Sequence record: DRR723986_10321
Length of the DNA: 38,168 nucleotides
Direction: 5' to 3' (one strand)
In this document: piece by piece, positions 9,136 through 38,168 of the stretch
Position numbering within the stretch: the stretch's first letter is position 1
How the letters are laid out: each line of letters starts with the position of its first letter
Position numbers and translations under genes: made by a program
Notes under the pieces: model-generated
The model's input: only the letters and a program-made list of their open reading frames with translations
What the model was told of the DNA's origin: nothing
Databases searched by the model: none

Positions 9136-9142
9136 GGTTCGA

Positions 9143-10713: not shown

Positions 10714-10753
10714 ACTGGACATTTGTCCAGTGTTTTTGACTAATATTCGTCAA
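10714..10753. promoter_or_regulatory. Palindromic operator(s) upstream of the GMC gene
   Basis: Perfect inverted repeat ACTGGACA-TT-TGTCCAGT (10714-10731), followed by TTGAC-N8-GTCAA (10736-10753) that includes a -35-like TTGACT. Confidence 0.6.
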
Positions 10754-10832
10754 CCACACCGAAAGATTCAGTTTCTTTCACGTGTGCACTGGTCTCACTG
10801 AGGTTTCAGTGACCAGCCTTGGGAGGGGTGCT

Positions 10833-12452: not shown

Positions 12453-12505
12453 CCGCGTATTGGTCGAACATCGAATTAAACACACAAGAACAAGGGGGCT
12501 AAGAC

Positions 12506-14134: not shown

Positions 14135-14140
14135 TATGGC

Positions 14141-14175
14141 GGGGACCCAAACAGGGTGTAAGGGTTTGGGTCCCC
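14141..14175 (+). terminator. 12-bp perfect stem hairpin after the CoA ligase gene
   Basis: GGGGACCCAAAC (14141-14152) pairs with GTTTGGGTCCCC (14164-14175), followed by a T-rich stretch. Confidence 0.7.
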
Positions 14176-16296: not shown

Positions 16297-16397
16297 GGTT
16301 TTTCTTTCAACCTCGATTCAGGAAAGACAAAAATATCCCGGCCCACCGCATCAAAGCGATGGTGCTCAGCACCAAGAAGCAGGCCGGGACTGGGGAG

Positions 16398-17432: not shown

Positions 17433-17451
17433 TGCGGTTTCCTCTGTTGGT

Positions 17452-18258: not shown

Positions 18259-19181
18259 CGGCTTGCCTCCTCTTTGGATTGGGCGCGGGCATAAAGCGTC
18301 AGCACCACCATCACCATCGACAGCAAGATCATCGAAATTGCCGCCCCAAACGGCCAGTTGCCTGCGTTCCCTTTGAACTGTTCTTCGATCAGCGAACCGA
18401 TCATGAAGTTCTTGGCCCCACCCAACAGATCCGGTGCCAAAAAGGCGCCAAGACTAGGCACGAAAACCAGAATGCACCCCGCAATGATGCCCGGCTTGAC
18501 GATAGGCAGGATCACCAACCGCAATGTCACCCAATTGCTGGCATACAGATCTGCTGCGGCTTCGGAAAAGGCGAAGTTATAGCGTTCAACGCTCGCATAG
18601 ATCGGCAAGACCATGAACGGCAGATAGGAATAGAACAGACCCAACTGCACGGCAAAGTTGGTGTTGATGATATGCAGCGGAGAGTCGACCAAACCTGTCC
18701 ACAACAAGAACTCATTCAACGGGCCATTGTCACGGATCAGGAATTTCATCGAAATGGTGCGGATCAACAGGTTCACCCAATAAGGGATCGTGATCAAAAA
18801 CAACCAGATCTGCCGGTTGGACCCACTGCGCGTCGCGATAAACCATGCCGTCGGAAAGCCGATGAAGAGGCAGAACACCGTTGCAAGGGCGGCCTGCCAG
18901 ATCGAGCGCCAGAATATGTTGATATAGGTCCATTCAATTTTGGGGGGCTCATCCCTGAACAGGCCGCGATCAAAAAAGAACTGATCATAGGCCGCCAACG
19001 AAAACTCCCAAATGACGCCACCACGAAATTCTTTGGTCAGGAAGGAATAGATCAGCATCAGACCGACGGGCAACACCAAGAAAAACCCGATGATGGCCCA
19101 TGCCGGCAAGATAAGCCGCGGGCCGAGCCCCTCGTACATGTCGGACCCTTTGCCCCCGCTGGAGATACCGCCACCAGCCAT
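18255..19181 (-). CDS. Polyamine ABC transporter permease (PotB/PotH family)
   Basis: [41 protein letters not shown]. Overlaps the next gene by 4 bp. Confidence 0.9.
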
Positions 19182-20257
19182 CAGTCAACCAACAGACGCG
19201 CTGCGGCTGCCTCCATCCCAAGTCCAACACGATCACCGCGTTCTGGGATATGCGTATCGGCGGAATTCTGAACCCGGACCGTCATCACTTCGCTATCATC
19301 AAGCGTCACCTCGACGTGCATATCCGTGCCTAGATAGATCCGCCGGGTCACAACGCCTGACAGCACCGCGCCATCCTCCGGGACAATCGCCATGCGTTCT
19401 GGGCGCACCGAAAGATGTCCGGCCCCTTCATGTGATCCATCCGCTGCCGGACAGGTAAACGTGCCCCCGCCGGGCAAAATACAGGTCGCCTGTCCCGCCC
19501 CAAGACCCGTAACAGTCACATCCAGCAGGTTGGTTTCCCCAATGAAATCTGCCACGAATTTGTTGTTCGGCTCTTCGTAGATGTCGCGTGTTGAACCCAC
19601 TTGTTGCACCTGCCCGCCCGCAATGACCGCGATGCGATCCGACATGGTCAGAGCTTCTTCTTGATCGTGGGTGACAAAAATAAATGTGATCCCGGTTTCT
19701 TGTTGGATCTGTTGCAATTCTAATCGCACGGCTTGGCGCAACTTCAGATCCAGCGCCGACAACGGCTCATCCAGCAACAGCACTTTGGGGTTTGGGGCCA
19801 AGGCCCGCGCAAGCGCGACCCGCTGTTGTTGCCCGCCAGACATTTGCGATGGCAACCGATCGGCAAAAGCGCTGAGCTGAACCAGTTCCAGAACCTCGCC
19901 TGCCCGTTTGCGCGCCTGAGCTTCGCCCTGCCCCAGCATCTGCAAACCAAACATCACATTGCGCGTGACATCCATGTGCGGGAAAAGCGCGTATTGCTGA
20001 AAGACCGTGTTCACCGGACGCTTGTTCGGCGGCAAATCTGCGATGTCTTCACCAAAGAGCTTGATCGCCCCTTGGGTCAGGGTTTCAAACCCGGCAATGG
20101 TGCGCAGCAAAGTGGTTTTACCGCAGCCCGACGGGCCCAACAGCGTAAAAAACTCGTTATCGCGAATCCGCAATGAGACGTCTCGCAACGCGGTGAACGA
20201 ACCGTATTTCTTGGTCGCGTCCTGTATATCAACGGCAATTGGTGTCTCTGATGTCAC
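19181..20257 (-). CDS. Polyamine ABC transporter ATP-binding protein (PotA family)
   Basis: Walker A GPSGCGKT, VFQQYALFPH, MSGGQQQR, LLLDEPLSALD, and a C-terminal TOBE-like extension. Confidence 0.92.
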   Translation of the reverse strand: MTSETPIAVDIQDATKKYGSFTALRDVSLRIRDNEFFTLLGPSGCGKTTLLRTIAGFETLTQGAIKLFGEDIADLPPNKRPVNTVFQQYALFPHMDVTRNVMFGLQMLGQGEAQARKRAGEVLELVQLSAFADRLPSQMSGGQQQRVALARALAPNPKVLLLDEPLSALDLKLRQAVRLELQQIQQETGITFIFVTHDQEEALTMSDRIAVIAGGQVQQVGSTRDIYEEPNNKFVADFIGETNLLDVTVTGLGAGQATCILPGGGTFTCPAADGSHEGAGHLSVRPERMAIVPEDGAVLSGVVTRRIYLGTDMHVEVTLDDSEVMTVRVQNSADTHIPERGDRVGLGMEAAAARLLVD

Positions 20258-23046: not shown

Positions 23047-24318
23047 CTAGTTCGCAATGGGAAACTGTTTCGGCTGAACCCGAAGCTGCCCCGCCCCAAA
23101 CGCACTGAGCGCCAACATCACAGCCGCAGTCGCCAGACACAGCGGCAGGCCGCCAACCTGATAACTCAGCCCCGACAGGACCGTCCCCAACAGGCGCCCC
23201 GCAGCATTGGCCATGTAATAAAACCCGACATCCATCGTCACGCGGTCATCTTGGGTAAACGCAAGGATCAAATAGGAATGAAGGGCCGAATTGACCGCAA
23301 AAACCGCCCCGAAAACCAACAATCCAATGACCAGCGTCCACGTCAGCCACGCCACAGGCGCGCCCGCCAGAAACACAAGCGCCGCAAGACCACCGGGGAT
23401 AAGACACAAAACAGCCACCCACGTGCGCGCGTCCCGCACCAGATCTGCCTCGGACCGATGCGCCGCACGCAACACGCGCGGTGCAAAGGCTTGGACCGCA
23501 CCATACAGGATGATCCACAGCGCCATAAAGCTGCCGATCAAAAAGAAGGTCTGCCGATTACCTGCTTCGGACCCATCCGATAACACCGCATAAAAATAAA
23601 CCGGGATGCCAACCACAAACCAAACATCCCGCGCGCCAAACAGAAAGACACGCGCAAAGCTCAGCCAGTTGATATTGCGGTTCTTGGACCAAACATCGGT
23701 GAATTTCGCGTCCTTACGCCCTTTGGGCAAGCCATCAGGCATACGCAACAGAACCGCCACCAAGATAATAGCAAGAACCGCTGCCATAACCAGGACCGAC
23801 GGCACAAATCCAAATGCCCCCAGCAAAGCCGCACCTAATAGAAAGCCAAGCCCCTTAACCGCGTTTTTGGACCCAGTGAGCAGCGCCACCCAGCGGAACA
23901 GCCCGTCACCCTCGGTCGGGGCCAACAGCTTTACGGCTGATTTTGAACTCATCTTGGCAAGATCTTTTGCGACCCCGGACACGCCTTGAACCAGCATGAC
24001 ATAGACCACGGACACAGTGATCGACCAAGCCGGGTCAAGCCCTGCCAACGCAACCAGCGCCAGCACTTGCAAGGTTAAGCCGGCATAAAGTGTTCGGGTC
24101 AGGCCAAACCGCGCGGCGATCCACCCTGCGGACAGGTTGGTGAGGATGCCTGCAATCTCGTAGAATACGAACAGATAAGCCAACTGAACCGGCGAGAACC
24201 CTAACGTGTGAAAGTGCAACAGCACCAACATCCGCAAGGCCCCGTCGGTCAGCATAAAGGCCCAATAGGCAGCTGTGACTGCGCCATAAGCTGCCAATCC
24301 CGAACCGTCGCGTGTCAC
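23047..24318 (-). CDS. arsJ: Organoarsenical efflux MFS transporter ArsJ
   Basis: [73 protein letters not shown]. Overlaps the gapdh stop by 4 bp. Confidence 0.93.
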
Positions 24319-25313
24319 AGCGAGGCGCCTACCATCAGGGCCACGTCAACAAGGCGATGCGCATATCCCCACTCGTTGTCATACCACGCAAAGATTTTGA
24401 CCTGCGTCCCGTTCACCACCATGGTCGATGGCGCATCAATGATCGAACTGCGCGGATCGTTTGTGTAATCGGTAGAAACCAAGGGGCGCGTTTCATATCC
24501 GAGAATGCCAGCCAGCGCGCCCTCAGAGGCGGTCTTGAACAGGGCGTTGACCTCTTCAACCGTGGTCTCACGTTCAACTTCGAAAACGCAATCCGTCAGT
24601 GATGCATTCAACAATGGCACGCGCACCGCATGGCCATTCAGTTTGCCGGTCAGCTCTGGATAGATCAGCGTAATCGCAGTGGCACTGCCCGTTGTTGTCG
24701 GGATCAGAGAATTCAGCGCAGACCGTGCGCGCCGCAGATCCTTGGCCGGGCGATCCACTATAGTCTGCGTGTTGGTCACATCATGAATGGTGGTCATCGA
24801 CCCGTGCTTGATGCCCAGCCCCTCGTGAATGACTTTCACCACCGGGGCCAGACAGTTTGTGGTACAGCTTGCCGCTGTCACAATCTGGTGCCGGGCCGCG
24901 TCATAGATTTCATCATTCACACCAACAACGATGTTTGCGGTGTCTCCATCTTTGACGGGGGCCGAGACCACAACTTTTTTTACGCCCGCCGCAAAATAAG
25001 GGGCCAGCTTGGCTTCGGTTTTGAACACGCCGGTACAATCAATGACCACATCCACGCCATCCAAGGGCAGGTCGGACAAGGATGATGTTTGGGTCACGGG
25101 GATACGGACGTCATCAATCGAAATACTATCGGCATCATGCGCAAACGCGGCAGGCCAACGCCCGTGAACCGTGTCAAATTCCAGAAGATGCGCGTGCATC
25201 TCTGGGTCTCCAACCGCATCATTAATGAACGCAATCTTTGCGCCCCGTTCCAAAAGCGGACGCAGGGCCAATTTGCCCATACGGCCTAATCCGTTGATCG
25301 CATAAGTTGTCAT
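24315..25313 (-). CDS. ArsJ-associated glyceraldehyde-3-phosphate dehydrogenase
   Basis: [31 protein letters not shown]. Likely start ATG 25313, next to the arsRC stop; the ORF-track N-terminal extension overlaps arsRC. Confidence 0.93.
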
Positions 25314-25314
25314 T

Positions 25315-26151
25315 CTAAATATCCTTGATCGTGCTGATGGTATCGACATTGGCCTGCAACGCTGTGCGGTCCAAAGTTTTGAAAGGAAGGGCCACAAAGG
25401 CCAGGATACGGTTGCGCAATTGCCCATATGCCTGCTGGAACGCCAGCCGTTTTTCGGCGTCGGTTCCTGTTGCGGAAACCGGGTCTGCCACACCCCAATG
25501 CGCGCTGATCGGCTGACCATACCACGCGGCGCATTCTTCGTTAGCGGCCTGATCACAAACCGTAAAAACAAAATCCATGACCGGCGCGTCTGGCGTTTGA
25601 AATTCCGCCGTGTTCTTGGATCGCAGCCCCGAAATATCGTGCCCTTTGCCCGACAGCATCTCGACTGCAAAGGGGTTCATCTCAGACTTGGGATGCATCC
25701 CGGCTGAATACACATTGAACCGATCACCCGCTTCGGTGCGCAATATCGCTTCGGCAAAAATTGACCGGGCAGAATTGCCGCTGCACAGAAACAGAACATT
25801 GCGCTTTGGCGCATCTAATTGCGTGGCCTCTGTCAGCATTGCGACCGGTGACGGGGGGCACAACTCGGGCCGTCCCTTGCAACAATCGTGCATCAGGTAA
25901 TCAGTCACCTCTGCAACCGCACCGACAGCGGCCTGATATCGAACAGATGTCCCCTGCCGAGACTGCACGACCAGCTCAACCTTTTTCAGCGCGGCCAAAT
26001 ACACCGACAGCGTGCTGGATTTGATATCTAGCGCCGCAGCGATTTCCCCGGCGGGCACCGCATCAGGATACCGGCGCACCAGCAATCGAAACACAGCGAT
26101 CCGCTGTGGGTGACCAAGGGTAGTGAGGCGATCTAGAATCATATTTTCCAT
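25315..26151 (-). CDS. ArsR repressor fused to a thioredoxin-type (LMW-PTP fold) arsenate reductase ArsC
   Basis: N-terminal ArsR wHTH ([30 protein letters not shown]). C-terminal [32 protein letters not shown]. Confidence 0.9.
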
Positions 26152-26266: not shown

Positions 26267-27493
26267 ATGCAAAAAATCGCCCTGCCCGAACGACCAGATT
26301 GGCGTACACACGCCCAAGAGGTTGGGTTTACCTTCGCCGATATGCATGGTGCGCCCTATTGGGATGAAACATCGGCCTATGCCTTTTCGCTAGAGCAGAT
26401 TGAAAACGATCTCGAAGATCCAGCAACCGAACTCCACGCAATGTGCTGCGAGGCGGTGGCCCATATCCTACAAAGCGAAGAACTGTTGGACCGCTTCGCA
26501 ATCCCGCAAGCGCATCGTGATCTGGTGGCCGAAAGCTGGCGTCGTGGAGATCCTGAAATCTATGGGCGGTTTGACTTTGCCTATGATGGCAAAGGACCTG
26601 CAAAGCTGTTGGAATACAATGCCGACACGCCAACCTCGCTCTATGAAAGTGCCGCGTTCCAATGGCAGTGGCTCGAAGATCAGCTGGCGGCTGGCGTCCT
26701 GCCCCAAGGCAGTGATCAGTTCAACGGAATCCACGAGGCCCTAGTTGCCCGGTTTCGCGAAACATTCGAACCGGACAGCGATCTGCATTTCACCGCCGTC
26801 AGCGGCTCTCCCGAAGACTACGGCACCGTCGAAGCCATGGGCTGGGCCGCACGCGAAGCCGGTCTGGGGGCGCATTATTGCGACATCGACAAAATCGCGA
26901 TCAGCGACGAGGGGCAATACCTCGATGATCAGGATCGCGTGATGGGGGTGCTGTTCAAGCTCTACCCGTGGGAAGATCTGCTGCAAGATGACTATGCAAA
27001 TCACATCGCCAAATCCGGATGCCTGTTCTTAGAACCCGCATGGAAAGCGCTGTTGTCGAACAAAGCGCTCCTCCCCGTTCTGTGGGAGATGTTCGAAGGC
27101 CACCCGAACCTGTTGCCTGCCTTCTTTGAACAGGACATTTCTGGCGCACTAACCACGCAATCCCCCGCCGCCCCATCTGTTGCCAAGGCGTTTGAACGCG
27201 CGGAATCAGATCTGGTATTGGGTCATGTCAGCAAACCGATCCTGTCGCGCGAAGGGGCGTCTGTGTCGATCCTCAAAAACAACGAGATCATCGAACAGGC
27301 GCAAAATACAGAATACGCGCAACATCCGCGCATCATTCAGGCCTATCATTCCCTGCCCCGCTTTGATGGGTTTCGCCCCATTATCGGCGCTTGGGTCGTG
27401 GGCGAAACCTGCGTGGGCATTGGCATTCGCGAAGACACATCGCGCATCACGCAGGATTTATCGCGCTTTAAACCGCACTATATTACCACTTAA
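26267..27493 (+). CDS. Glutathionylspermidine synthase-like ATP-grasp ligase (YgiC/YjfC family)
   Basis: RPDWR, YWDE, YGRFDF, KLLEYNADTPTSLYE, FKLYPWE, EPAWK...SNK, KPILSREG, GIRED, SRFKPH. No amidase (CHAP) domain. Confidence 0.92.
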   Translation: MQKIALPERPDWRTHAQEVGFTFADMHGAPYWDETSAYAFSLEQIENDLEDPATELHAMCCEAVAHILQSEELLDRFAIPQAHRDLVAESWRRGDPEIYGRFDFAYDGKGPAKLLEYNADTPTSLYESAAFQWQWLEDQLAAGVLPQGSDQFNGIHEALVARFRETFEPDSDLHFTAVSGSPEDYGTVEAMGWAAREAGLGAHYCDIDKIAISDEGQYLDDQDRVMGVLFKLYPWEDLLQDDYANHIAKSGCLFLEPAWKALLSNKALLPVLWEMFEGHPNLLPAFFEQDISGALTTQSPAAPSVAKAFERAESDLVLGHVSKPILSREGASVSILKNNEIIEQAQNTEYAQHPRIIQAYHSLPRFDGFRPIIGAWVVGETCVGIGIREDTSRITQDLSRFKPHYITT

Positions 27494-27537
27494 CTGACCG
27501 CTATCGTACACGCGCCCGACCAAGAGACAGGATTGTC

Positions 27538-28116
27538 ATGACCAAACGTTCCAACCGCGTCGCCATCGCCATTATTGGCGCCACTGCCTTTACGCTCGCT
27601 GGATGTCGCGACGAACAAGTCGATGCCCAAGCCTTTCCTGATTTAGCATCCTGCACCGATCAGGCCACACAGGGCGGGATGTTCACGGCCCAAGATTGTG
27701 AAACCGCGATATCCGACGCCAATGCCCTGCATGTCGAAGCCGCGCCAAGATACGACAGCCAGGCCGTTTGCGAAGAACAGCACGGTAAAGGCGCCTGTGG
27801 GTCAGAAGCCACTGCAGCACAGGGCGGGTCCAGTAGCATCTTTATGCCCCTCATGGCCGGATACCTAATCGGCAACATGCTGGGCGGGGGGCGGCAAGGC
27901 ATGTCCGCCAGTCAGCCGCTCTATAAAACCTCGGACGGGAAATTCACCAACGCGGCCCGGTCCAGCACATTTTCCGCCAACCGCGGCGCGACCAAGATGT
28001 CTACGTCGCAGTTCACCCGCCCGGCCACAACCGTGGGCAAAACACCAATGTCGCGCGCCACGGCGAGTTCTCGGGGTGGGTTTGGCAAGGCCGGCGGCCG
28101 AAGCCTGGGCGGTTAA
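27538..28116 (+). CDS. DUF1190 (YgiB/YjfM-like) lipoprotein
   Basis: Lipobox LAG-C, four further Cys, APRY...CEEQHG..AC, FMPLMAGYLIG, QPLY, C-terminal SRGGFG. Adjacent to the Gsp-like gene. Confidence 0.87.
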   Translation: MTKRSNRVAIAIIGATAFTLAGCRDEQVDAQAFPDLASCTDQATQGGMFTAQDCETAISDANALHVEAAPRYDSQAVCEEQHGKGACGSEATAAQGGSSSIFMPLMAGYLIGNMLGGGRQGMSASQPLYKTSDGKFTNAARSSTFSANRGATKMSTSQFTRPATTVGKTPMSRATASSRGGFGKAGGRSLGG

Positions 28117-28257: not shown

Positions 28258-29244
28258 GTGCAGAACGCGATCTGGCATACAGGATTTCTAGAACGGATTG
28301 CCACGGGTGAAACCGCGGCCGTTGAGATATTCGTACAACCAGGTTTTTCCGACTTCGAACTGTCCGCAATCATCCAGGTCCTCCAAACCGCCAATGATGT
28401 GTGCAACGTGGATCGGTTTGCCTGGCAGGTCACATCCGATCAACCCGGTCTGATTGCCAGCAGTTCCGAGCTGTTGGTGCGTGCCGAACCCACGATTGGT
28501 GATGAATACCTCAAGGACTGTTTGTTTGTGATCGGCGGCCAAGGCGTATCTGCACCCGGTTGGATCAACCGCGTTCGCGCGATGCAACGTCTGAAACGCC
28601 CCGCAGTTCTATTGTCTGACGCCGCGACCAAATACATCAAGACATCCGCCACCCTGTCAGGGCCAGTGACCACACATTGGCGCGACATCGGGATACTGCA
28701 CGAAACCGGTGACTACCCAACGCTCACCACTCATCTGGTCGAAAACAACAATGGCATTCTCACCTGTGCCGGCCAAAGCCATACACAGGAAATCGTCATT
28801 GGTCTGTTGTCCGAGATCCTTAACCCGCAAGACTGCGCCGAATTAAGCAACACACTGATTTTGGACAATGTGCGCGGATTTCAACGCGACCAACCCGCCG
28901 GTCTAAGCAAGAGCCCTAATTTCTTTGAAAAGCGCCTGCAAAATGCGATTGCCTTGATGGAAGGCAATGTTGAAACGCCGCTGCGGATTGCGTTTCTGGC
29001 CGGGGAAATTGGCGTGTCCACCCGTCAACTGGAACGCTTGTTCATGTTCTATCTGGGAAAATCCCCTGCGAAATTCTACAAACACATCCGCCTGAAACAT
29101 GCGCAGGCCCTGATCGTCGACACTCAGATGCCGCTAATTGACGTGGCGCTGGCAAGTGGGTTTTCGACGTCCTCGTCGCTGGCGAATTCATATCGGCAGG
29201 AATTCGGAACCACCCCCAACAAAGCGAGAAACCGCAAGAATTAA
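28258..29244 (+). CDS. GlxA-family AraC transcriptional regulator (amidase-like N-terminal domain)
   Basis: N-terminal PGFS...TAN, TTHW, ILTCAG. C-terminal AraC double HTH MEGNVETPL...STRQLERLF...VALASGF...YRQEFGTTP. GTG start with AGGAG. Confidence 0.87.
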   Translation: MQNAIWHTGFLERIATGETAAVEIFVQPGFSDFELSAIIQVLQTANDVCNVDRFAWQVTSDQPGLIASSSELLVRAEPTIGDEYLKDCLFVIGGQGVSAPGWINRVRAMQRLKRPAVLLSDAATKYIKTSATLSGPVTTHWRDIGILHETGDYPTLTTHLVENNNGILTCAGQSHTQEIVIGLLSEILNPQDCAELSNTLILDNVRGFQRDQPAGLSKSPNFFEKRLQNAIALMEGNVETPLRIAFLAGEIGVSTRQLERLFMFYLGKSPAKFYKHIRLKHAQALIVDTQMPLIDVALASGFSTSSSLANSYRQEFGTTPNKARNRKN

Positions 29245-29264: not shown

Positions 29265-30386
29265 CTATCGATAGATACGATGGTTGCGCAGTCCCCAGTC
29301 GGTAAAGAGATCGGCTAAAATGGTCTGAAATTGCGCCTCGGCCCTTTGCGGTGAAATCAACGCGCCATCGACCTCCCCAAAGACGCTAACCTTATCCCCC
29401 ACCTGAACACGCGCGATATCCGTAACATCCGCCACAATCGCATTCATAGAGACCTTGCCCACCACGGGAGCCAAAGCGTTTCTGATAGACACCGCACACT
29501 TGCCATGGGCGATCCGGCTAAACCCATTCTCATAGCCAATCGAAATGCAGGCCAGTCGACGATCCTGATCTAGGTGACTTGCCCGGTCATACCCCACGCT
29601 TGCCCCTTTCGGATAATCCTGCAGGCTGACCACCCGCGCGCCCAGATCCATCGTGCTGCGGAACCCAAGCTCAGGCTTCAAAATTCCGTACAAAATTGCG
29701 CCACATCGGTACATATCCGTTTCAACGTCTACGTCCGAGACCAGCGTCAGCGAGCTGCCCGCATGGACACGCACATCTTTGCGCTGCAAGTCGCTATTCT
29801 CAAGAACCCAAGACACCTGCTGCTGAAACAACTCAGAGCTTTGAATGAGCTCATTTGGCTCGTTAGATGGGAAATGGGTGCAAATCCCACCAATATCTGT
29901 GCCCAATACATCCAAGATCTGACGGCATGTATCCTGCCCGGGTCCCATCGAAACCTCTAGCGCATCACGCGACATGCCCGATGCATTCAGGGACAGGTGA
30001 ACCCGATCCCGGTATCGGTTTGTATCCAGATAACCCCGGATCAGCCGCGCCGTTGCAACTGAGGCGACCTGCTCTTCGACGCGATCACCCAGCGCGCCGC
30101 CTATTTCCTCGGCCGTTGCGGTTCGCAACCGGATGAGCGTTCCGGAAAACCCCGCATCTCGCACAGCGCGCGCTTCGGCATTTGAGGTTATCCCGATACA
30201 GGTCACCCCCTGTTCCCGGACCAAGGGCACAACCTGTGCAATGCCATGCCCATAAGCATCGGCCTTTAACACCGCACAGAACTTGCGCCCCGCTGGCACC
30301 AGCCCCAGAGCAAGCTCTAGGTTTTTGGAAATGCGGTCTCGGTGGATCGTACACCAAGACGCTGGACACAGACCCGCGTTCGTCAC
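29265..30386 (-). CDS. PLP-dependent alanine-racemase-fold amino-acid racemase, broad-spectrum (Bsr) type
   Basis: CAVLKADAYGHG (PLP Lys), SNAEAR, LNASGMSR, THFP, SVGYDR (catalytic Tyr), VVGKVSMN. Confidence 0.85.
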   Translation of the reverse strand: MTNAGLCPASWCTIHRDRISKNLELALGLVPAGRKFCAVLKADAYGHGIAQVVPLVREQGVTCIGITSNAEARAVRDAGFSGTLIRLRTATAEEIGGALGDRVEEQVASVATARLIRGYLDTNRYRDRVHLSLNASGMSRDALEVSMGPGQDTCRQILDVLGTDIGGICTHFPSNEPNELIQSSELFQQQVSWVLENSDLQRKDVRVHAGSSLTLVSDVDVETDMYRCGAILYGILKPELGFRSTMDLGARVVSLQDYPKGASVGYDRASHLDQDRRLACISIGYENGFSRIAHGKCAVSIRNALAPVVGKVSMNAIVADVTDIARVQVGDKVSVFGEVDGALISPQRAEAQFQTILADLFTDWGLRNHRIYR

Positions 30387-30388
30387 TG

Positions 30389-31540
30389 TTACCCGCGCCC
30401 CAGCAAACCATACGCAATATCGCAGAACAGGTCGGTCACGATCGGCACCAGTGCGTCAGGAAAATCATAATCCGGGTTGTGCAATTGGGGCTGATCCTCG
30501 CCCGAACCGATATAGATCATAGCCCCCTTGGTCCCATCATCGCCGATGCGTCCAAAATCCTCGGACCACCGCATGGGGATGTCCATATCGTGAATCGCAA
30601 GCGTCAAATTTTGTGCGCTTTGGCGGGCAATCTCTGTCGCGGCGGGGTCATTGACCACGGATCGGAACACATCATGCCAATGGGTTTGGACCGCAAGACC
30701 CGCCGTGTTTTGCGCAACCAACTGACGCGCATCGGCCATCAACGTTTCCATACGTTCATTGGTCATCGAACGCAGTGTGACGCGCAATTCCCCATCCGCC
30801 GGGGCGATCCCAAATGTGGGTTCGCCCAGCACCGCATGGGTCAACGTGCTCAGCGCAAAATCATCCTCCCCAATCGTGCCACCGCCAAGCGCGGGCAGGG
30901 CCGTCATCAGGTGGGCCATGGCATTGGCTGGCGAAAACCCGTCTTCGGGCGCGGCGGCGTGCGAACTTTTCCCCTCAAACAGGATCTGCATCCCGCGCGA
31001 GGCACAGTTTCCCGCGCCTGCGCGCAACCCGATTTCCCCCAAGGGGCGACCCGGAACGTTATGATAGGCAAAGGCGAAATCCGGGCGGATCTCAGACCAA
31101 CGCGGATCTTCGATCACAGCCTTGGCCCCTGCCCCGGTTTCCTCAGCCGGTTGAAACAGCAGGATTACGCGGCCCTTTGCGGGGCGCATCGCAAGCCGCA
31201 TCCCGACACCTAACATAGAGACCATGTGGCCATCATGCCCACACAGATGCCCTTTGCCCTCGACTTCGGATTTATACGGAAGATCGGAAATCTCGCGGAT
31301 CGGCAGCCCGTCCAATTCACACCGCAGCAAAACAGTTGGCCCTGACGCGGCCCCCGTGAACTCGGCGGCAACCCCATGTCCGCCAAGGTCGCGCCACAAA
31401 CGATCTGCGCCCAGCTTGGTCAGTTCCGTAGCGATACGCTCTGCTGTTTCCTGCTCTTCACCCGAGATCTCAGGACGACGGTGCAAAGCCTGACGCAACG
31501 AGGTGAGGTAAGCGATTTGATCAGATGAAAGAGTGTGCAT
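30389..31540 (-). CDS. M20D-family amidohydrolase (N-acyl-amino-acid hydrolase-like)
   Basis: LHRRPEISGEE, RCELDGLP, HLCGHDGH, FQPAEE, SEDF, LHNPDYDF. ATG 31540 follows GAGGA. Confidence 0.88.
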   Translation of the reverse strand: MHTLSSDQIAYLTSLRQALHRRPEISGEEQETAERIATELTKLGADRLWRDLGGHGVAAEFTGAASGPTVLLRCELDGLPIREISDLPYKSEVEGKGHLCGHDGHMVSMLGVGMRLAMRPAKGRVILLFQPAEETGAGAKAVIEDPRWSEIRPDFAFAYHNVPGRPLGEIGLRAGAGNCASRGMQILFEGKSSHAAAPEDGFSPANAMAHLMTALPALGGGTIGEDDFALSTLTHAVLGEPTFGIAPADGELRVTLRSMTNERMETLMADARQLVAQNTAGLAVQTHWHDVFRSVVNDPAATEIARQSAQNLTLAIHDMDIPMRWSEDFGRIGDDGTKGAMIYIGSGEDQPQLHNPDYDFPDALVPIVTDLFCDIAYGLLGRG

Positions 31541-31551
31541 TCGGCTTTTCC

Positions 31552-32844
31552 TCAAATCTCTTCAACATCGCACCAATCAGCGATGAATAGGGCGGTGGCT
31601 TTGGTGATCCGGCGGATGCTTTCAAGCTCGACGCGCTCATTAAAGCCATGGATGGCTTCGGCGCGGGGGCCATACACCAACGCCGGCGTGTCTGCATAAA
31701 GTCCAAAAAACCGCGCATCTGTGGTGGCGGTGATCGCTTCGCGTACCAACTCTTGGCCCGTCGCCGTCTGATGGGCACGTCCTAACATCTCGATGGCTGA
31801 ACTCGCCCGCTCAGAACTGTCTTGTGACAGGGCGTACCCCTCGGCGTGAAACCCGTGATAGACGATTTCAGGCAAGGAATTACGCAAGAAATCATTGTCG
31901 CGCGCCGCGTCCAGGATCACCTCTTCGATTTCGGCTTTAGCAGCCTCAATCGATTGGCCCGGAAAAATTGCCATGCGCACGTCAAACACGCTCCATGCTG
32001 GAACCGAACTGGTCCAATCGCCCCCTTCGATCTTGCCGACATTCAGGTTCAAGGCGTGGTCCATGTGGGCGTAATCATCAGGCCGGTTCTCGGCCGCATT
32101 CCATCGATGTTCCATCTCATGCAACGCTTTGATCAAAGGAAATGCTGCCTCGATCGCGTTCGCACCGCTGCCCGCATAGGCCACGTGGGTGGGGCGGCCT
32201 TTCAGGTGAACCTGAAACCAGATCACCCCCAATTGCGCCGTCACCAAATGTTCGGAAAACGGCTCAGGGATCAAAACCGCGTCAGCCTTATAACCCCGCG
32301 CCAAACAGGCCAACGCCCCATTTCCGGTGCATTCTTCTTCGACCACCGATTGAAAATGCACGTCCCCCGCCGGGGCCAAGCCACACGCCCGCAAGGCATC
32401 CAGCGCAAACAGGTTCGAGGCCAGTCCCGCTTTCATGTCACCGCCACCACGCCCATACAGCCAACCGCCTTCGACCCGCGGCTCAAACGGGGGGGTGTCC
32501 CACATATCAAGCGGCCCTTCGGGGACCACATCAATGTGCCCATTCAAAATCAAAGATCGGCCTTTCTGTGTGTTCGACCTGTGTGTCCCGACGACATTCA
32601 CCGCATCATCATATGGGCCAATGACAGGCGAAAATCCCGGTAGGGTCTCAATCTCTGCCACATCAATCTGCCAACGATCAATTTCATACCCGCGCGCGGA
32701 CAATTCATCTGCCATAAAGGTCTGCGCCGACTGCTCATTCCCGCGCGTCGAGGGATGCGAGGTGAGTTCGGACAAGAATGCAATCTGGCGGTCAAACCCT
32801 GCATCAACAGCATCACACAGGCGGGTTTTCAAATCGTCATGCAT
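31552..32844 (-). CDS. ArgE/DapE-family (M20A) deacylase
   Basis: LNGHIDVVP, YGRGGGDMKAG, VVEEE, IPEP, TTDAR, IHGFNE. ATG 32844 follows GAGG. Confidence 0.88.
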   Translation of the reverse strand: MHDDLKTRLCDAVDAGFDRQIAFLSELTSHPSTRGNEQSAQTFMADELSARGYEIDRWQIDVAEIETLPGFSPVIGPYDDAVNVVGTHRSNTQKGRSLILNGHIDVVPEGPLDMWDTPPFEPRVEGGWLYGRGGGDMKAGLASNLFALDALRACGLAPAGDVHFQSVVEEECTGNGALACLARGYKADAVLIPEPFSEHLVTAQLGVIWFQVHLKGRPTHVAYAGSGANAIEAAFPLIKALHEMEHRWNAAENRPDDYAHMDHALNLNVGKIEGGDWTSSVPAWSVFDVRMAIFPGQSIEAAKAEIEEVILDAARDNDFLRNSLPEIVYHGFHAEGYALSQDSSERASSAIEMLGRAHQTATGQELVREAITATTDARFFGLYADTPALVYGPRAEAIHGFNERVELESIRRITKATALFIADWCDVEEI

Positions 32845-32854
32845 TTGGGGCCTC

Positions 32855-34255
32855 TCAGAATGTCTCGGGTGGCGCTTGGTGTACTGTATGGGACGCGCTG
32901 GGTACACGCTCTCTCTTGATGGGCAGGCCAACCTCTTGGGCAAAGGCGTCCAGCGCCGCGCGCAGAATGCCCATCAATTCGTCGATCTGCGGTTCGGTGA
33001 TGATCAAGGGCGGCGCGATCAGAAAGTGATCACCAGCCGTGCCGCCCCGTGTCCGGCGCGAATAAATGATCAGGCCACGTTCATAAGCAAGTTCGACAAG
33101 GCGCGCGTGGGCATCAAGTTCGGGTGGCAGCGGCTCCATCGTCTCTCGGTCAGCGACGAACTCAAACGCGGTCAACAATCCCTTGCCGCGCACGTCCCCA
33201 ATAAAGGGGTAACGGTCCATCAGCGCACGCAGCTGAACCATCAAAACCTCACCCATTCTGGCGGCGTTGTCGATCAATCCTTGATCTTCCATCTCTTCGA
33301 GAACGGCCAATCCTGCCGAACATGCCAAAGGATTTCCGGCATAGGTAAACCCATGCAGAAAACCACCTGCATCTAGAACAGGTTCGACCAACCGTGCCCC
33401 AGCAACAATCGCCCCGAGCGGCGCATAACCAGCGCCAAACCCCTTGGACATCGCAACGATATCCGGCGTGATGCCCCAGTGCTCAGCGGCCAGGAATTTG
33501 CCCGTACGCCCTGCCCCGGTCATGACCTCATCATAGATCAGCAACACACCAAATTCGTCGCAGATGTCGCGAATGCGGCCATAATAACTATCGGGCGCAA
33601 CCAAGGCACCGGTAGACGCCCCACCAACGGGTTCCATGATAAACGCCAGAACAGTTTCCGGCCCTTCGGCAAGAATTTTGTCCCGCAAGAGGTCGGCGTA
33701 TTTTATTCCGCGCGCCTCTTCGCTCAGATTGTCGCGATCCAGATAGGTCGCTGGCGCTGCCACTTTGGGCATCCCCTCCATCATGGGTGCAAAGGGTTCG
33801 CGCAGTGGATCATAACCGGTCAAATCCAACGCACCAAAGGTGCAGCCATGATACGATGGAAACCGCGATATCACCTTGTGACGTGCGTCTTGCCCCTGTG
33901 TCAGCGCATATTGACGGGCCAGTTTCACAGCGCTTTCAACTGCCTCTGATCCACCAGAAACAAAGAACACGCGGTCCAACCCATCGGGCGTCATGGCAAC
34001 CGTTTTCGCCGCCAGATCCTCGGACGGGTGTGTGCGAAAATGCAACCGATAGCCAAAGGTTGCTTTGTCCATCTGCGCCTTGATCTTGGCCAGCACACGC
34101 GGATTGGAATGACCGATGTTTGACACCATCGCGCCGGATGATCCATCGATATAGCGTTTCCCATCTTCATCGAAGAGATAGATCCCCTCGCCGTAATCCA
34201 GAAACGGACGCGGGTTGCGCGATTGATAGAACAGATAAGAGGAATCGTCGCTCAC
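32855..34255 (-). CDS. Class III PLP aminotransferase
   Basis: [49 protein letters not shown] (PLP Lys), HGFTY. Confidence 0.9.
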
Positions 34256-35022
34256 TTGGCACCCTCAATATGCTTACGGAGAAATTCGCGCGTCCGGTCT
34301 TTTGTCGGGGTTTTGAAAATGACTTCGGGCGGGCCTTCTTCGACGACAACCCCTTTGTCCATGAACAGCACACGGTCACAGACCGAGGCCGCAAAATCCA
34401 TTTCGTGGGTCACAATGATCATGGTCATGTGCTGTTCGGCGAGGTTTTTCATGACCTGATTCACCTCTTCCACCAATTCCGGGTCCAGCGCCGAAGTGGC
34501 CTCGTCAAACAGCATCAGTTTGGGTTTCATTGCCAGTGCCCGCGCGATCGCAACCCTCTGCTTTTGCCCGCCAGACAGTTGCGATGGGTAATAATCGATC
34601 CGCTCTAACATGCCGACGTTATCAAGCTGCTCTTCTGCCAGCTTGTTTGCCTCGTCCTTAGAGATCTTTTTCAACAACATTGGCGCCATGGTGACATTTT
34701 CGCGGGCAGTCATATGCGGGAACAGATTAAAGTGCTGAAATACCATCCCAACATGTTGGCGCATCTCATTGATGTGTTTTTCATACTGGCGATGCGGCAG
34801 CTGTTTGTTCACTTGCACCCCATCCAACCAGATTTCGCCACCTGTTAGCGGGTCCAAATCATTGATTGCGCGCAGCAAAGTGGATTTACCTGAGCCAGAC
34901 GAGCCGATGATGCCAACAATCTGCCCCCGCTCAACCGTCAGGCTGATGTCTTTCAGAACCTCCAGCGTGCCAAAGGATTTTTGGGCATGCCGGATTTCGA
35001 CGAAGTTTGTTTTTTCGGTCAT
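34252..35022 (-). CDS. Polar amino-acid ABC transporter ATP-binding protein
   Basis: [47 protein letters not shown] 35022 follows GAGG. Confidence 0.92.
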
Positions 35023-35038
35023 GACGGGCCTCGTAAAT

Positions 35039-35695
35039 TCAGCGGGAGATTGAGATGCGGCGCTCAATCTTGCGCTGCACCCATTCCATGCCCAGGTTGA
35101 TGACGTAATAGCAGGCCGCAGCCAGGATATAGAATTCGAACGGGCGGTACGTTTTGCCGATGACCCGCTGCGCCGACAGTGTCAGCTCGCTCACCCCGAT
35201 CACCGACACCAAAGCACTGTCTTTCAAAAGCGCGATCATATTGTTGCCAATCGGTGGAACCACATCCCGTACGGCCTGTGGGATAACGACTTTGCGCAAG
35301 GCCTCGCCCCGGCTCAATCCCAATGTACGGGCCGCTTCCATCTGGCCTTTGTCGACCGCCAAGATCGCGGTTTGAATTAGTTCGGAATTATAGACCGCAA
35401 AGTGCAATCCCAACCCGATGATCCCGGCCACAAAGGCGGGCAGATCGATGCCAATTTGAACCAACCCAAAGTAGATCAGGAACAACTGCAACAACAGCGG
35501 TGTGCCCATGAACAACCACGCAATCAGTCGAAACGGTTGGCGGATGATCCAAGGCGCATAAAGCGCAATCACAGCAAAGATGATACCACCAAAAAAGCTC
35601 AGGATCGCAGCCGCAACCGTGATGCCAATGGTCCAAGCACAGCCCAGCAGGATCACGTCCATGTATTTGGGAATAATCGAAAAATCGAGGCCCAT
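35039..35695 (-). CDS. Polar amino-acid ABC transporter permease (HisM/GlnP family)
   Basis: [30 protein letters not shown]. Confidence 0.92.
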
Positions 35696-35713
35696 CCGTC
35701 TTTCCTTTTCCGA

Positions 35714-36361
35714 TCAGGTGATTTGCACTTTGCGGTCCAGCCAAGCGATGCCTCGGCCGACCACATAGATGATGATCATGTAAAGAACCCCTGCCAGCAG
35801 GAACATTTCAAAGGGTTTGTAGGTCGATCCAATGTAACGCTGCGCGGTATAGGTCAGTTCAACGACCGAGATCGCCGCGACCAGCGCAGTCGCCTTGATC
35901 AGTGCGTTGATATTCACCCCCAACGGGCGCACCATCAGCCGGGCAGATTGCGGTAGAATGATCCTGTACATGGCTTGCCATTGGCTCAGCCCAAGGGTGC
36001 GGGCCGCTTCGCGTTGACCTTTGTCGATCGCGATAATCGCACCGCGGATGGTTTCAGTCATATAAGCGCCGGCGTTTATACCAAGTCCGATCACCCCCGC
36101 CTCGAACGCGTCCAGTTGGATACCGATCTGGGGCCCCCCAAAGTAGAGGATAAACAGCTGGATCAAAGCAGGCGTGCCGCGAAACACACTGACATAGGCC
36201 GCACCGGCAAACCGCAATCCCGCAAATCTTGACAAACGTGCCGCCGCGCCAAGCGCCCCACAGGTCAAACCCAATATCGCCGTCAAAATCGACAACAGAA
36301 CTGTGATCCAAGCGGCCTCAAGAAAGAACGGATAGACCTTAAGCATCAGTTCAAAATCCAT
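35714..36361 (-). CDS. Polar amino-acid ABC transporter permease (HisM/GlnP family)
   Basis: [35 protein letters not shown] 36361 follows a G-rich RBS. Confidence 0.92.
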   Translation of the reverse strand: MDFELMLKVYPFFLEAAWITVLLSILTAILGLTCGALGAAARLSRFAGLRFAGAAYVSVFRGTPALIQLFILYFGGPQIGIQLDAFEAGVIGLGINAGAYMTETIRGAIIAIDKGQREAARTLGLSQWQAMYRIILPQSARLMVRPLGVNINALIKATALVAAISVVELTYTAQRYIGSTYKPFEMFLLAGVLYMIIIYVVGRGIAWLDRKVQIT

Positions 36362-36470
36362 GCTGCCCCCCTCGTGGCCATAACGTGCGAAACGGGCACC
36401 GCGCACCGTCTCTGAAACAAAGGTTTACCGATGTTGCGGAACATGCAAGCGTACACCAACGATCCATGCC

Positions 36471-36506
36471 CAAAAGAAAGCCCCGCCGCCAAAGCCGACG
36501 ACGGGG
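36471..36506 (-). terminator. Stem-loop with U-rich tail after the binding-protein gene
   Basis: Minus strand CCCCGTCGTC pairs with GGCGGCGGGG using G-U pairs, then CTTTCTTTT. Confidence 0.5.
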
Positions 36507-36516
36507 AAGAGAGCGC

Positions 36517-37293
36517 TTAGCGGATATCCGCGCCGATCCACTTTTCAGCCAGCGCAAGATAGGTGCCGTCTTCCATCATGGAATCCAACGCTTTTTGCAT
36601 TTCCTCAGCCAAGGCGGGGTTACCCTGACGAATTGCGATGCCCGCCCCAAACGGTTCGGTACCGGGATCATCGAACATTGCGAATTCCTGCCCCTTGGCC
36701 GTCATCGCCAGAATGGCCGCAATCGAGTCGTTGACGATGGCATCAACACGCCCGTTTTCCAATTCAAGCAGCAGTTCGGGCAGGCCTTTGTAGGTATTGA
36801 TCGAATACCCCATCTCACGGGCCCAATCCTCGTGGGTTTCGCCCAATGTTAGGCCCACTTTCTTACCCTTCAGGCCATCAAGATCGGTAATGTCTGATCC
36901 CGGCTTGGTAAAGATAGCGCGCTTATCCGAATAATAGGGCCCAACAAAATCAACGACCTCATCCCGCTCGGCTGTGATTGTCATCGACCCAACAATCGCG
37001 TCGTATTTGTTCGCCAGCAGACCGCCAATGATGCCGTCCCACGCCGTGGTCACGATTTCGGCCTCTAGCCCCATACGTTTGGCGATTTCCGTGCCAACCG
37101 CCGGGTCAAATCCGACAACCTGATTTTCATCGTTCACGAAATTAAACGGAGGGTAAGCCCCAGACATCGCAATGCGGATCACACCTTTTTCTTTGAGCGT
37201 ATCCAGCTCCTCTGCGACAGCGGCGTTCAGCCCCATTACTGCAAGGCCAGCAGCGGCGATTGCAGATTTCAGGATGGTACGGCGAACAGTCAT
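36517..37293 (-). CDS. Polar amino-acid ABC transporter substrate-binding protein (family 3)
   Basis: Signal peptide MTVRRTILK...AVA, YPPFNF, GFD, WDGIIGGL, MTITAER, KW near the C-terminus. ATG 37293 follows AGGAG. Confidence 0.9.
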   Translation of the reverse strand: MTVRRTILKSAIAAAGLAVMGLNAAVAEELDTLKEKGVIRIAMSGAYPPFNFVNDENQVVGFDPAVGTEIAKRMGLEAEIVTTAWDGIIGGLLANKYDAIVGSMTITAERDEVVDFVGPYYSDKRAIFTKPGSDITDLDGLKGKKVGLTLGETHEDWAREMGYSINTYKGLPELLLELENGRVDAIVNDSIAAILAMTAKGQEFAMFDDPGTEPFGAGIAIRQGNPALAEEMQKALDSMMEDGTYLALAEKWIGADIR

Positions 37294-37417
37294 CTTTGTC
37301 TCTCCTGTTGATAGGTGCCGGGGTAAAGGCCCGTGCAATATTGGCGGATTACCCCCGCTCAAGCTGAGACTTGCATGGTCGCTCATATCGTGCAAATAAA
37401 TATATGCCATTATCAAT

Positions 37418-37432
37418 ATAGATGAAATCTAT
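37418..37432. promoter_or_regulatory. LysR-type T-N11-A recognition box
   Basis: ATAGAT-GAA-ATCTAT palindrome overlapping the lysR ATG, at the end of an AT-rich divergent spacer. Confidence 0.7.
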
Positions 37433-38168
37433 GAGCTTACCGCATCAACAACGCTTTCCGTGGAACCTTGATTGGAATCTGCTGCGCACCTTTATGATCA
37501 TCGTCGAACAGCGTGGCATTTCAAAAGCTGCGGACTTTCTTGGGCTGAAACAACCAACAGTTTCAGCAGCCTTGAAACGCCTCGAAACGGCGACTGGCCG
37601 AACGCTTATCATTCGAAAACCCAATGAGTTCACGATTACGCGCGAGGGTCATGCGCTCTATTCTGAATGTGCCAAAATCTTTGGCTCAATCTCGCAGCTC
37701 CCTTCGTTGTTGAACGTCGACAATGCCGAATTGCGCGGGCACCTTTCGATCGCCACCACCAGTTCCGTTATCTCAGAACATTTTGACGATTTTCTGGACC
37801 GGTTTTCCACCGCGCATCCGCATGTCACTTATTCCTTTTCGGTTTTTGAAAGTGACGAAGTTGAAACGATGATCTCACAAAACCGAGCGAGTTTTGGCAT
37901 CTGCCTTTTGTCCAAGGCCCCGCAAAACCTCGACAGGTTCGTTTTGTACAGAGAGTTTTTTGGCCTCTACTGTGGGGCCCGCCACCCCTTATTCCATGTC
38001 GACCAGATCAACCCCAAGGATCTAGAAGGGGAACCCTTTGTAGCCTTTCAAACCGAAGCCGAAGGCGGCCCACTGGATGTCGTGTCCCGTCTTCGGGCGC
38101 GGGTGGGTCTGGCCAACACTTGGCGCGGTGTCTCTTCAAGCTTGAATGAAATCCGGCGGATGATCATG
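37431..38168 (+). CDS. LysR family transcriptional regulator (3' truncated; absent from the ORF track)
   Basis: Manual translation gives MSLPHQQRFPWNLDWNLLRTFMIIVEQRGISKAADFLGLKQPTVSAALKRLE..., a LysR HTH. The same frame reads ...NEIRRMIM at the window end. Confidence 0.92.
   Translation, partial: MSLPHQQRFPWNLDWNLLRTFMIIVEQRGISKAADFLGLKQPTVSAALKRLETATGRTLIIRKPNEFTITREGHALYSECAKIFGSISQLPSLLNVDNAELRGHLSIATTSSVISEHFDDFLDRFSTAHPHVTYSFSVFESDEVETMISQNRASFGICLLSKAPQNLDRFVLYREFFGLYCGARHPLFHVDQINPKDLEGEPFVAFQTEAEGGPLDVVSRLRARVGLANTWRGVSSSLNEIRRMIM

Follow-up and report, generated by a model that had tools for sequence, protein, structure and literature searches.

What does an operon import and degrade that joins an ATP-binding cassette (ABC) importer of the polar amino acid type to a class III aminotransferase, two M20-family deacylases, and a racemase? 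We analyzed such an operon in a 38,168-nucleotide stretch of DNA from sequence record DRR723986_10321, which is here called the window (Table 1). Open reading frame (ORF) listing together with Pfam and NCBIfam scans of the window confirmed eight same-strand genes on the minus strand, and gene starts were refined using the sequence and annotated homologues. The intergenic gaps along the operon are 155, 18, 16, −4, 10, 11, and 2 bp. An earlier sequence-only reading had counted the same eight co-oriented genes and given the last four gaps exactly. It had also proposed the import of an N-acylated diamino acid or small D/L peptide and an ω-transamination, with ornithine-type products that could feed PutA through pyrroline-5-carboxylate (P5C). 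The substrate class remained likely in our analysis, while the transamination to P5C was given up in view of the β-keto acid enzymes that neighbor the aminotransferase in relatives. From gene context, we lean toward the view that the operon belongs to a widespread, unnamed family of clusters for the catabolism of acetyl-protected β-amino acids, with Nε-acetyl-β-lysine or an analogue as the substrate.

A racemase orthologue (E ≤ 1e−80) was present in 12 of 401 Rhodobacteraceae genomes (11 of 400 genera), and the neighborhoods of all 12 were compared by tblastn. Ten of them carry the ABC system, the aminotransferase, the ArgE-type M20 enzyme, the TIGR01891 M20 enzyme, and the racemase in the window order; the co-conservation expected by the sequence-only reading was indeed found. 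Across these ten, identity was 87 to 97% for the aminotransferase, 85 to 99% for the ArgE-type M20 enzyme, and only 61 to 96% for the racemase. LysR homologues (73 to 97% identity) are divergently oriented in eight related clusters. Judged by gene order, the locus is a co-conserved, LysR-linked operon predicted to serve import and catabolism. Furthermore, nine of the ten have genes for 3-oxoacid coenzyme A (CoA)-transferase subunits A and B between the aminotransferase and M20 genes (bit score vs. cutoff: A, TIGR02429, 226 vs. 128.5; B, TIGR02428, 257 vs. 243.55). The exception is G002, the closest relative of the window. A thiolase gene (TIGR01930, 398.5 vs. 240.55 bits) is found in four of the ten. 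In G374 and on plasmid pW43C (Parasedimentitalea marina), the aminotransferase is accompanied by a β-keto acid cleavage enzyme (BKACE; DUF849), a histone deacetylase (HDAC)-fold enzyme, the TIGR01891 M20 enzyme, and the racemase. This BKACE matched NF053538 (501.8 bits; nearest PDB entry, 3e02, 4.5e−123), and the HDAC-fold enzyme is of the acetylpolyamine amidohydrolase kind (9gkz at 2.6e−86; also 3men and 3q9b). According to this gene order, a BKACE fills the CoA-transferase slot and an N-acetyl-amine deacetylase fills the M20 slot.

The same exchange of partners was seen in a phylum-wide sample, in which 45 of 401 genomes matched the aminotransferase at E ≤ 1e−105, 19 of them at ≥56% identity. 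Apart from G001, 18 loci reach this identity; we compared 17 of them (all but G1043) together with three loci at 47 to 49%. A BKACE gene follows the aminotransferase gene in 12 of the 17 loci, and CoA-transferase genes are present in two. An acetylpolyamine amidohydrolase-type enzyme occurs in 11 and an ArgE-type M20 enzyme in four; the BKACE loci L133 and L137 bear the latter in place of the former. A small GCN5-related N-acetyltransferase (GNAT) of 160 to 170 amino acids is encoded in 14 of the 17, and no match to AblB was found among the proteobacterial small GNATs of these loci. The window-type ABC system was detected in four loci, and the pair formed by the TIGR01891 hydrolase and the racemase was absent in all 17. 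Two Rhodobacteraceae loci, L131 and L132, combine LysR, the ABC system, the aminotransferase, a small GNAT, CoA-transferase A and B, and an ArgE-type M20 enzyme (plus thiolase in L132), without the TIGR01891 M20 enzyme and without the racemase. L148 (48% identity, another class) has CoA-transferase A and B, thiolase, an ABC system, and the amidohydrolase-type enzyme; this locus (G961, 867 to 10374) continues with a RidA-like gene (Ribonuc_L-PSP) and an ornithine cyclodeaminase/mu-crystallin family gene. A Mesorhizobium-like architecture was found in L140 to L146 and in L150. Clusters of this kind encode, between the ABC ATPase and the aminotransferase, a protein of 546 to 549 amino acids with an N,N-dimethylformamidase β-like domain (PF20254; L140, 7303 to 8952; L142, 10390 to 12030; L150, 7331 to 8971), which tblastn detected in nine of the 17 loci. 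By its domain, this protein may be an upstream amidase, hinting at a conjugated substrate there too.

In a quick maximum-likelihood tree (careful search unfinished; support as Shimodaira-Hasegawa-like approximate likelihood ratio test [SH-aLRT] values), all 29 alphaproteobacterial aminotransferases with such gene contexts group in a single clade (99 SH-aLRT). The CoA-transferase/M20-type enzymes (98) are nested within the BKACE type, and those of Bacilli constitute a clade of their own (97). Taken together, trees and neighborhoods indicate that one orthologous aminotransferase is combined with either keto acid-cleaving solution, either N-deacetylase, and usually an acetyltransferase, in every combination.

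The aminotransferase falls outside the ornithine and acetylornithine types: its best families are PRK07483 (462.7 bits) and PRK06917 (435 bits), argD scores far lower, and the nearest PDB entry is 3i4j. CoA-transferase with thiolase, or BKACE, accompanies the orthologues in 12 of 12 Rhodobacteraceae-type loci and in 14 of the 17 other alphaproteobacterial loci. These β-keto acid enzymes therefore point to β-amino transamination rather than ω-transamination. Since the BKACE versions need a free keto acid, the expected substrate of the aminotransferase is the free acid rather than a CoA ester. The enzyme is a candidate N6-acetyl-β-lysine transaminase. The neighborhood of its paralogue in G001 and G002 contains neither CoA-transferase nor BKACE and was uninformative. 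The ArgE-type M20 enzyme (nearest PDB entry, 3pfo, 7.5e−105), whose slot is taken in relatives by the acetylpolyamine amidohydrolase-type enzyme, is in the same way a candidate deacetylase of 4-acetamidobutyrate or its CoA ester.

The chain length of the substrate is suggested by Bacilli. Aminotransferase homologues with 38 to 46% identity were detected in 64 of 301 sampled Bacilli genomes, and 20 of the best-scoring loci were compared by tblastn. In 19 of the 20, genes for aminotransferase, CoA-transferase A, CoA-transferase B, and ArgE-type M20 enzyme follow in the order seen in the Roseobacter group, with a thiolase gene inserted in two of the collinear loci. Identity to the Roseobacter proteins is 39 to 46% for the aminotransferase, 44 to 50% and 45 to 50% for CoA-transferase A and B, and 33 to 38% for the M20 enzyme. 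Two of the aminotransferases matched PRK06917 (713.6 and 753.3 bits), and two of the M20 enzymes matched PRK06915 (686.5 and 722.7 bits). Moreover, an AblB homologue lies within 18 of the 20 loci, an aldehyde dehydrogenase gene in 13, and a gene for a second class III aminotransferase (GabT) in seven. All three AblB copies tested matched TIGR03827, putative β-lysine N-acetyltransferase (270.7 to 297.3 vs. 205.1 bits), and one GabT matched the equivalog NF005376 (676.7 vs. 676 bits). Because AblB, GabT, and aldehyde dehydrogenase stand in this context, the Bacilli substrate would be β-lysine and the product γ-aminobutyrate (GABA). One of the two Bacilli loci without AblB, L124 (G629, 2766 to 14143), has a polar amino acid ABC importer and a thiolase gene beside the module, the only such locus of the 20; it is an import-type version resembling the Roseobacter one.

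In the route that we favor, the polar amino acid-type ABC system would import Nε-acetyl-β-lysine or a close analogue, and the aminotransferase would remove the β-amino group to give 6-acetamido-3-oxohexanoate. In the ancestral operon, CoA-transferase A/B would activate this β-keto acid, thiolase would cleave it to acetyl-CoA and 4-acetamidobutyryl-CoA, and the ArgE-type M20 enzyme would deacetylate the product to GABA for general metabolism. No GNAT or AblB gene was found in the 12 loci of the window's subtype, which leaves the acetyltransferase step of a Pseudomonas B4-type route (see below) without a gene in these loci. Searches of G001, G002, and G209, including one with TIGR03827, likewise detected neither AblA nor AblB, and both were present in two Bacilli. 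Since the subtype keeps the deacetylase and lacks an acetyltransferase, the substrate probably arrives already acetylated. The same chemistry could act on another ω-N-acyl β-amino acid that differs in chain length or in its acyl group, an alternative that we consider rather unlikely. The markers that fix the C6-to-C4 logic (AblB, GabT, and aldehyde dehydrogenase) occur only in the Bacilli clusters, and the small GNATs of proteobacteria are not of the AblB type, both of which would suit a different substrate. However, aminotransferase, CoA-transferase, and M20 enzyme are homologous to and collinear with the Bacilli module, and we know of no other natural ω-N-acetyl β-amino acid. Nε-Acetyl-β-lysine itself, which methanogens and some bacteria use as a compatible solute (PMC9049628, PMC3543383), is therefore the most evident candidate.

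The window copy has lost a part of this core. DNA alignment to G001 revealed one clean loss of about 1.3 kb comprising CoA-transferase A and nearly all of B, with identical breakpoints in the window and G002. The collinear four-gene module is reduced to aminotransferase and M20 genes in the window and is complete in G001 and eight other relatives. The aminotransferase gene has lost its stop codon; it reads into the last ~60 nt of the CoA-transferase B gene and uses its TGA, so that the final ~19 residues are foreign, encoded by the 3′ remnant of that gene. The M20 start and its ribosome-binding site were unaffected. Thus, the tight spacing of the two genes was described correctly by the sequence-only reading with respect to the 10-bp gap, but the adjacency is not original; it is a deletion scar from which two ancestral genes are missing. 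Contigs from two metagenome studies run across the junction (X1 record 4, 31970 to 32953; X3 record 24, 32542 to 33014), so that the deletion is not an artifact of assembly; one of the two runs may be the window's own source.

Loss of the CoA-transferase raises the question of whether the window copy is a decaying remnant of a dead pathway. The lost step is present in nine of ten relatives and the aminotransferase bears a foreign 19-residue tail, as might be expected of such a remnant. Against decay, all eight reading frames are intact, the same deletion is found in G002, and the deleted form occurs in the metagenome contigs of both studies. Moreover, the ratios of nonsynonymous to synonymous substitution rates (dN/dS) since the split of the window and G002 are low at a dS of 0.12 to 0.32: 0.054 for the aminotransferase, 0.030 for the ArgE-type M20 enzyme, 0.086 for the TIGR01891 M20 enzyme, 0.10 for the racemase, and ≤0.011 for the transporter genes. 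We conclude that the remaining operon genes are still under purifying selection, and a dead pathway appears quite unlikely. With CoA-transferase A/B lost and the rest under selection, the operon would use a borrowed housekeeping CoA-transferase or serve mainly nitrogen harvest.

The TIGR01891 M20 enzyme and the racemase behave differently from the core. The sequence-only reading had the two M20 enzymes remove acyl groups with different regio- or stereospecificity. They do not form a matched pair: the ArgE-type enzyme belongs to the conserved core, and the TIGR01891 enzyme is an add-on that accompanies the racemase. Hydrolase and racemase genes co-occur in 12 of 12 genomes, with both core types and once without a core (G364). 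GNAT genes are present in none of the 12 loci with the pair and in 14 of the 17 without it, a contrast whose independence is overstated by the relatedness of the loci. Since the pair state and the GNAT state each occur with both core types, at least two transitions are implied. The nearest solved relatives of the TIGR01891 enzyme are N-α-acyl-amino acid hydrolases (match to YxeP, 1ysj, 8.8e−44), and a search of the ESM Atlas with this enzyme returned generic amidohydrolase clusters only. The racemase aligned over its full length with PDB entries 4bf5, 4dyj, 4dza, and 4beu (E values of 1e−64 to 1e−70), and its closest named homologues are from Falsiruegeria litorea and other Roseobacter-group genera. 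K41 and Y266, which we take to be the pyridoxal phosphate (PLP) lysine and the catalytic tyrosine, are invariant in the 12 orthologues. Because the alignment starts at approximately residue 43 of the periplasmic precursors and an upstream stop lies 2 bp before the racemase start, the enzyme has no signal peptide and must be cytoplasmic. It thus has the full-length similarity, the PLP lysine, and the tyrosine of the Bsr family and lacks the periplasmic signal. A genome scan with the racemase profile was swamped by general alanine racemases (one Roseobacter cluster in 80 loci kept), and no M20 partner was found in the contexts of distant Bsr homologues from Aeromonas, Pseudomonas, and Leucobacter. 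The idea that the racemase merely recycles alanine from a pyruvate-dependent aminotransferase was rejected, as it leaves both the obligatory M20 partner and the gene context in G364 unaccounted for.

Judged by these neighborhoods, the pair is a separate accessory two-gene unit that probably releases and inverts an α-amino acid from an N-acyl compound; this may be a second, α-type substrate or else a conjugate with an acetyl-β-lysine part. In G364 it stands alone, beside an ornithine cyclodeaminase equivalog (581.5 vs. 350 bits) and a tripartite ATP-independent periplasmic (TRAP) transporter, which suggests ornithine as its product without settling the matter. A LysR gene is divergent from the pair in this locus (L130, 271 to 12465), and beyond lie genes for a succinate-semialdehyde dehydrogenase (SSADH)-like enzyme, a second TIGR01891 M20 enzyme, and a PRK07482-type aminotransferase (823.6 vs. 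687 bits); the locus resembles a separate, uncharacterized catabolic island. The G364 context also lends something to the idea that the whole operon handles an N-acyl α-diamino acid (acetyl-ornithine, acetyl-lysine, or acetyl-diaminobutyrate) or a small D/L peptide, with deacylation by the M20 enzymes, inversion by the racemase, and ω-transamination to P5C for PutA. In line with it are the N-α-acyl specificity of the solved TIGR01891 relatives and the preference of the racemase family for basic amino acids, with the lysine racemase 4dza among the matches. Nevertheless, we hold this to be unlikely: the aminotransferase falls outside the ArgD/ornithine aminotransferase group, and ω-transamination needs neither CoA-transferase with thiolase nor BKACE, yet the orthologues are tied to these enzymes. 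Furthermore, hydrolase and racemase are missing from L131 and L132, although the ABC system, the aminotransferase, the CoA-transferase, and the M20 enzyme are all present there. Nor is it probable, in our estimate, that the subtype takes up an undescribed amide of Nε-acetyl-β-lysine with a D- or L-α-amino acid. In that case, the TIGR01891 enzyme would cut the conjugate, the racemase would invert the amino acid set free, and the core would degrade the acetyl-β-lysine part. The mutual exclusion of GNAT and pair across loci would fit such a conjugate.

Several points weigh against Nε-acetyl-β-lysine as the substrate of a newly recognized family. The substrate is read from gene context only, and the chain length, from β-lysine to GABA, from the context in Bacilli. 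GabT and succinate-semialdehyde dehydrogenase are not encoded in the Roseobacter clusters. SBP_bac_3 proteins usually bind α-amino acids, and two of the eight genes, hydrolase and racemase, have no role in the proposed route. A β-keto acid-cleaving step (BKACE, or CoA-transferase with thiolase) is absent from the clusters of the window and G002, and elsewhere G002 encodes only a CoA-transferase A paralogue with 36% identity and BKACE paralogues with 34%. Strict orthology with Bacilli is called into question by two context-free proteobacterial paralogues that branch between the alphaproteobacterial and Bacilli clades. The arrangement in Bacilli is presumably the yodT-yodS-yodR-yodQ-yodP-kamA operon of Bacillus subtilis. 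An aerobic L-β-lysine pathway of Pseudomonas B4, which was reportedly studied in the Barker laboratory in about 1979 to 1981, is said to comprise EC 2.6.1.65, a 3-keto-6-acetamidohexanoate cleavage enzyme, and EC 3.5.1.51/3.5.1.63.

Table 1. Coordinates of the operon and of associated features in the window
Feature	Position	Strand	Observation
GbdR/GlxA-like AraC regulator	28258..29244	+	Convergent on racemase; outside conserved cluster
Alanine racemase-fold, Bsr-type PLP racemase	29265..30386	-	Nearest PDB entries are broad-spectrum racemases
TIGR01891 M20 amidohydrolase, aminoacylase type	30389..31540	-	194.3 vs. 153.75 bits
ArgE/DapE-family M20 deacylase	31552..32844	-	NF005306, 624.7 bits vs. 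cutoff of 376
Deletion scar at aminotransferase/M20 junction	32855..32915	-	Three-way DNA alignment of window, G002, and G001
Class III aminotransferase	32855..34255	-	Aminotran_3, 330.9 bits
ABC ATPase	34252..35022	-	ABC_tran; start at 35022 preceded by Shine-Dalgarno-like ACGAGG
ABC permease 2	35039..35695	-	BPD_transp_1; 79 to 100% identity to relatives
ABC permease 1	35714..36361	-	BPD_transp_1; 83 to 100% identity to relatives
Hairpin, 11 pairs (8 G-C), followed by T-run	36481..36506	-	Directly past the binding protein stop, in the 155-bp gap
SBP_bac_3 solute-binding protein, 258 amino acids	36517..37293	-	Signal-like N terminus MTVRRTILKSAIAAAGLAVMG; predicted periplasmic
Control region, 137 bp	37294..37430	.	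Invariant blocks CTTGCA, CAAATAAATAT, and AATATAGA (eight-genome alignment)
LysR-family regulator, cut by the window end	37431..38168	+	HTH_1 and LysR_substrate domains; divergent from operon

The binding protein scored below all NCBIfam equivalog cutoffs (best, cystine solute-binding protein, 176.9 vs. 312 bits). For the divergent LysR gene, the start at 37431 is the better one, as its ATG is kept in 8 of 8 aligned genomes and the ATG at 37422 is not. The T-N11-A motif noted in the sequence-only reading is borne out by two such pairs, 37397/37409 and 37403/37415, which are invariant in 8 of 8 genomes and are candidate LysR sites, although T-N11-A by itself would be frequent by chance. A promoter scan of the control region did not find a sigma-70 consensus, and match counts were no higher than in shuffled sequences. 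LysR would activate the operon by binding to the AT-rich box, which is conserved. The hairpin is probably an attenuator or partial terminator between the binding protein gene and the remaining genes. In one metatranscriptome run, a 984-nt contig spans 36371 to 37354 over the binding protein gene, and downstream only small pieces were found. Contigs from an RNA library show neither transcript ends nor levels and may stem from DNA carryover; this coverage is compatible with attenuation at the hairpin and offers a weak hint of it. The GlxA-type regulator is convergent as previously described, but it is not a member of the conserved cluster: the AraC gene adjoins it in G001 and G002 only, i.e., within the genus. 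The YgiC/YgiB-type pair upstream of it (26267 to 28116, plus strand; a glutathionylspermidine synthase-like pre-ATP-grasp gene followed by a DUF1190 gene) is likewise kept beside the cluster only in G001 and G002.

Other parts of the window contain genes that are worth recording. At 5 to 1165 (plus strand) lies the 3′ part of an aldehyde dehydrogenase domain gene that is cut by the window start; it is presumably putA, and no link to the operon was found. A stand-alone, single-module nonribosomal peptide synthetase of 1,314 amino acids (condensation, adenylation, carrier, and thioesterase domains) is encoded at 1227 to 5171 (minus strand), beside a sulfatase and a tripartite tricarboxylate transporter. 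The region from 14923 to 20257 (minus strand) encodes another class III aminotransferase, which shares 32% identity with that of the operon, and next to it an ABC importer of the polyamine type (SBP_bac_8, permease, and ATPase with TOBE domain). The glyceraldehyde-3-phosphate dehydrogenase ORF at 24315 to 25670 (minus strand) has Pfam domains from residue 124 of 451 onward, suggesting an overcalled start or an N-terminal extension. At 25315 to 26151 (minus strand), an ArsR-type helix-turn-helix is fused to a low-molecular-weight phosphatase/ArsC-like domain (278 amino acids).

If the proposed route is correct, it would provide genes for EC 2.6.1.65 and for 4-acetamidobutyrate(-CoA) deacetylases, which are known only from decades-old enzymology, and a function for the long-unexplained yodT-type module of Bacillus. 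Marine Roseobacter-group bacteria would then scavenge a compatible solute that is made by methanogens and by some bacteria, a new link in osmolyte cycling. Two steps of the pathway would each have two unrelated solutions, which have been exchanged while the aminotransferase remained orthologous. Sister strains that differ in the presence of the CoA-transferase genes are a natural experiment, and a Bsr racemase located in the cytoplasm, in a family that is otherwise periplasmic, deserves attention in itself.

Among known systems, ectoine catabolism (DoeA/DoeB/DoeD, EhuABCD) likewise joins a polar solute ABC importer, an N-acetyl-diamino acid deacetylase, and a class III aminotransferase. It differs in that DoeB2 scored 184.6 bits vs. 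550, all Ehu subunits remained below their cutoffs, and neither DoeA nor DoeC is encoded in the window operon. In agreement with the sequence-only reading, the operon does not correspond to arginine, lysine, ectoine, or opine catabolism as annotated. The closest solved relatives of the racemase are BsrV of Vibrio cholerae, Alr of Pseudomonas putida, and the lysine racemase of Proteus mirabilis; unlike the window enzyme, which lacks the signal region of about 30 residues, they are periplasmic, and identity is only 33 to 38%.

The alphaproteobacterial BKACE clusters, including those of pW43C and Mesorhizobium-like genomes, share with the window an orthologous aminotransferase (56 to 68% identity) and often the ABC importer (binding protein, 53 to 59% identity) and LysR. 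They differ by having BKACE for CoA-transferase/thiolase and an HDAC-fold deacetylase for the M20 enzyme. pW43C is exceptional among them, with the hydrolase-racemase pair and without GNAT. The Bacilli yodT-type cluster has the four-gene order of the intact relatives, and 3I4J is the nearest structure for both YodT and the window aminotransferase. Bacilli would synthesize their own substrate (AblB next to the module in 18 of 20 loci, AblA in the genome), usually without an importer, whereas the Roseobacter form has the ABC importer and LysR and lacks AblA and AblB. In published reports on these genes, YodT is called uncharacterized, with 3I4J as nearest structure (PMC6522883), and yodQ and yodS are placed near kamA, whose role is called unknown (PMC12361552). 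Overexpressed yodP-kamA of B. subtilis led to production of Nε-acetyl-β-lysine, which was of no use there against osmotic stress, according to PMC9049628.

The aerobic pathway of Pseudomonas B4, as outlined above, shares the acetyl-protected ω-amine, transamination at C3, keto acid cleavage to a C2 unit and 4-acetamidobutyryl-CoA, and deacetylation to GABA; the relatives of the BKACE/GNAT/amidohydrolase type match it step for step. EC 2.6.1.65 is listed as KEGG R04029, as one preprint records (10.1101/2021.06.01.446673). The literature searched yielded no gene-level description of acetyl-β-lysine catabolism and no genes assigned to the Pseudomonas pathway. Unlike the Pseudomonas pathway, the window subtype has no acetyltransferase, replaces the acetyl-CoA-dependent lyase by CoA-transferase with thiolase, and adds the ABC importer, the aminoacylase-type M20 enzyme, and the racemase, and the window copy has lost the CoA-transferase. 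In summary, the window cluster would be a variant form of a pathway that is known from its enzymes alone, with an importer, a CoA-transferase/M20 core, an added hydrolase-racemase pair, no acetyltransferase, and a strain-level loss of the CoA-transferase.

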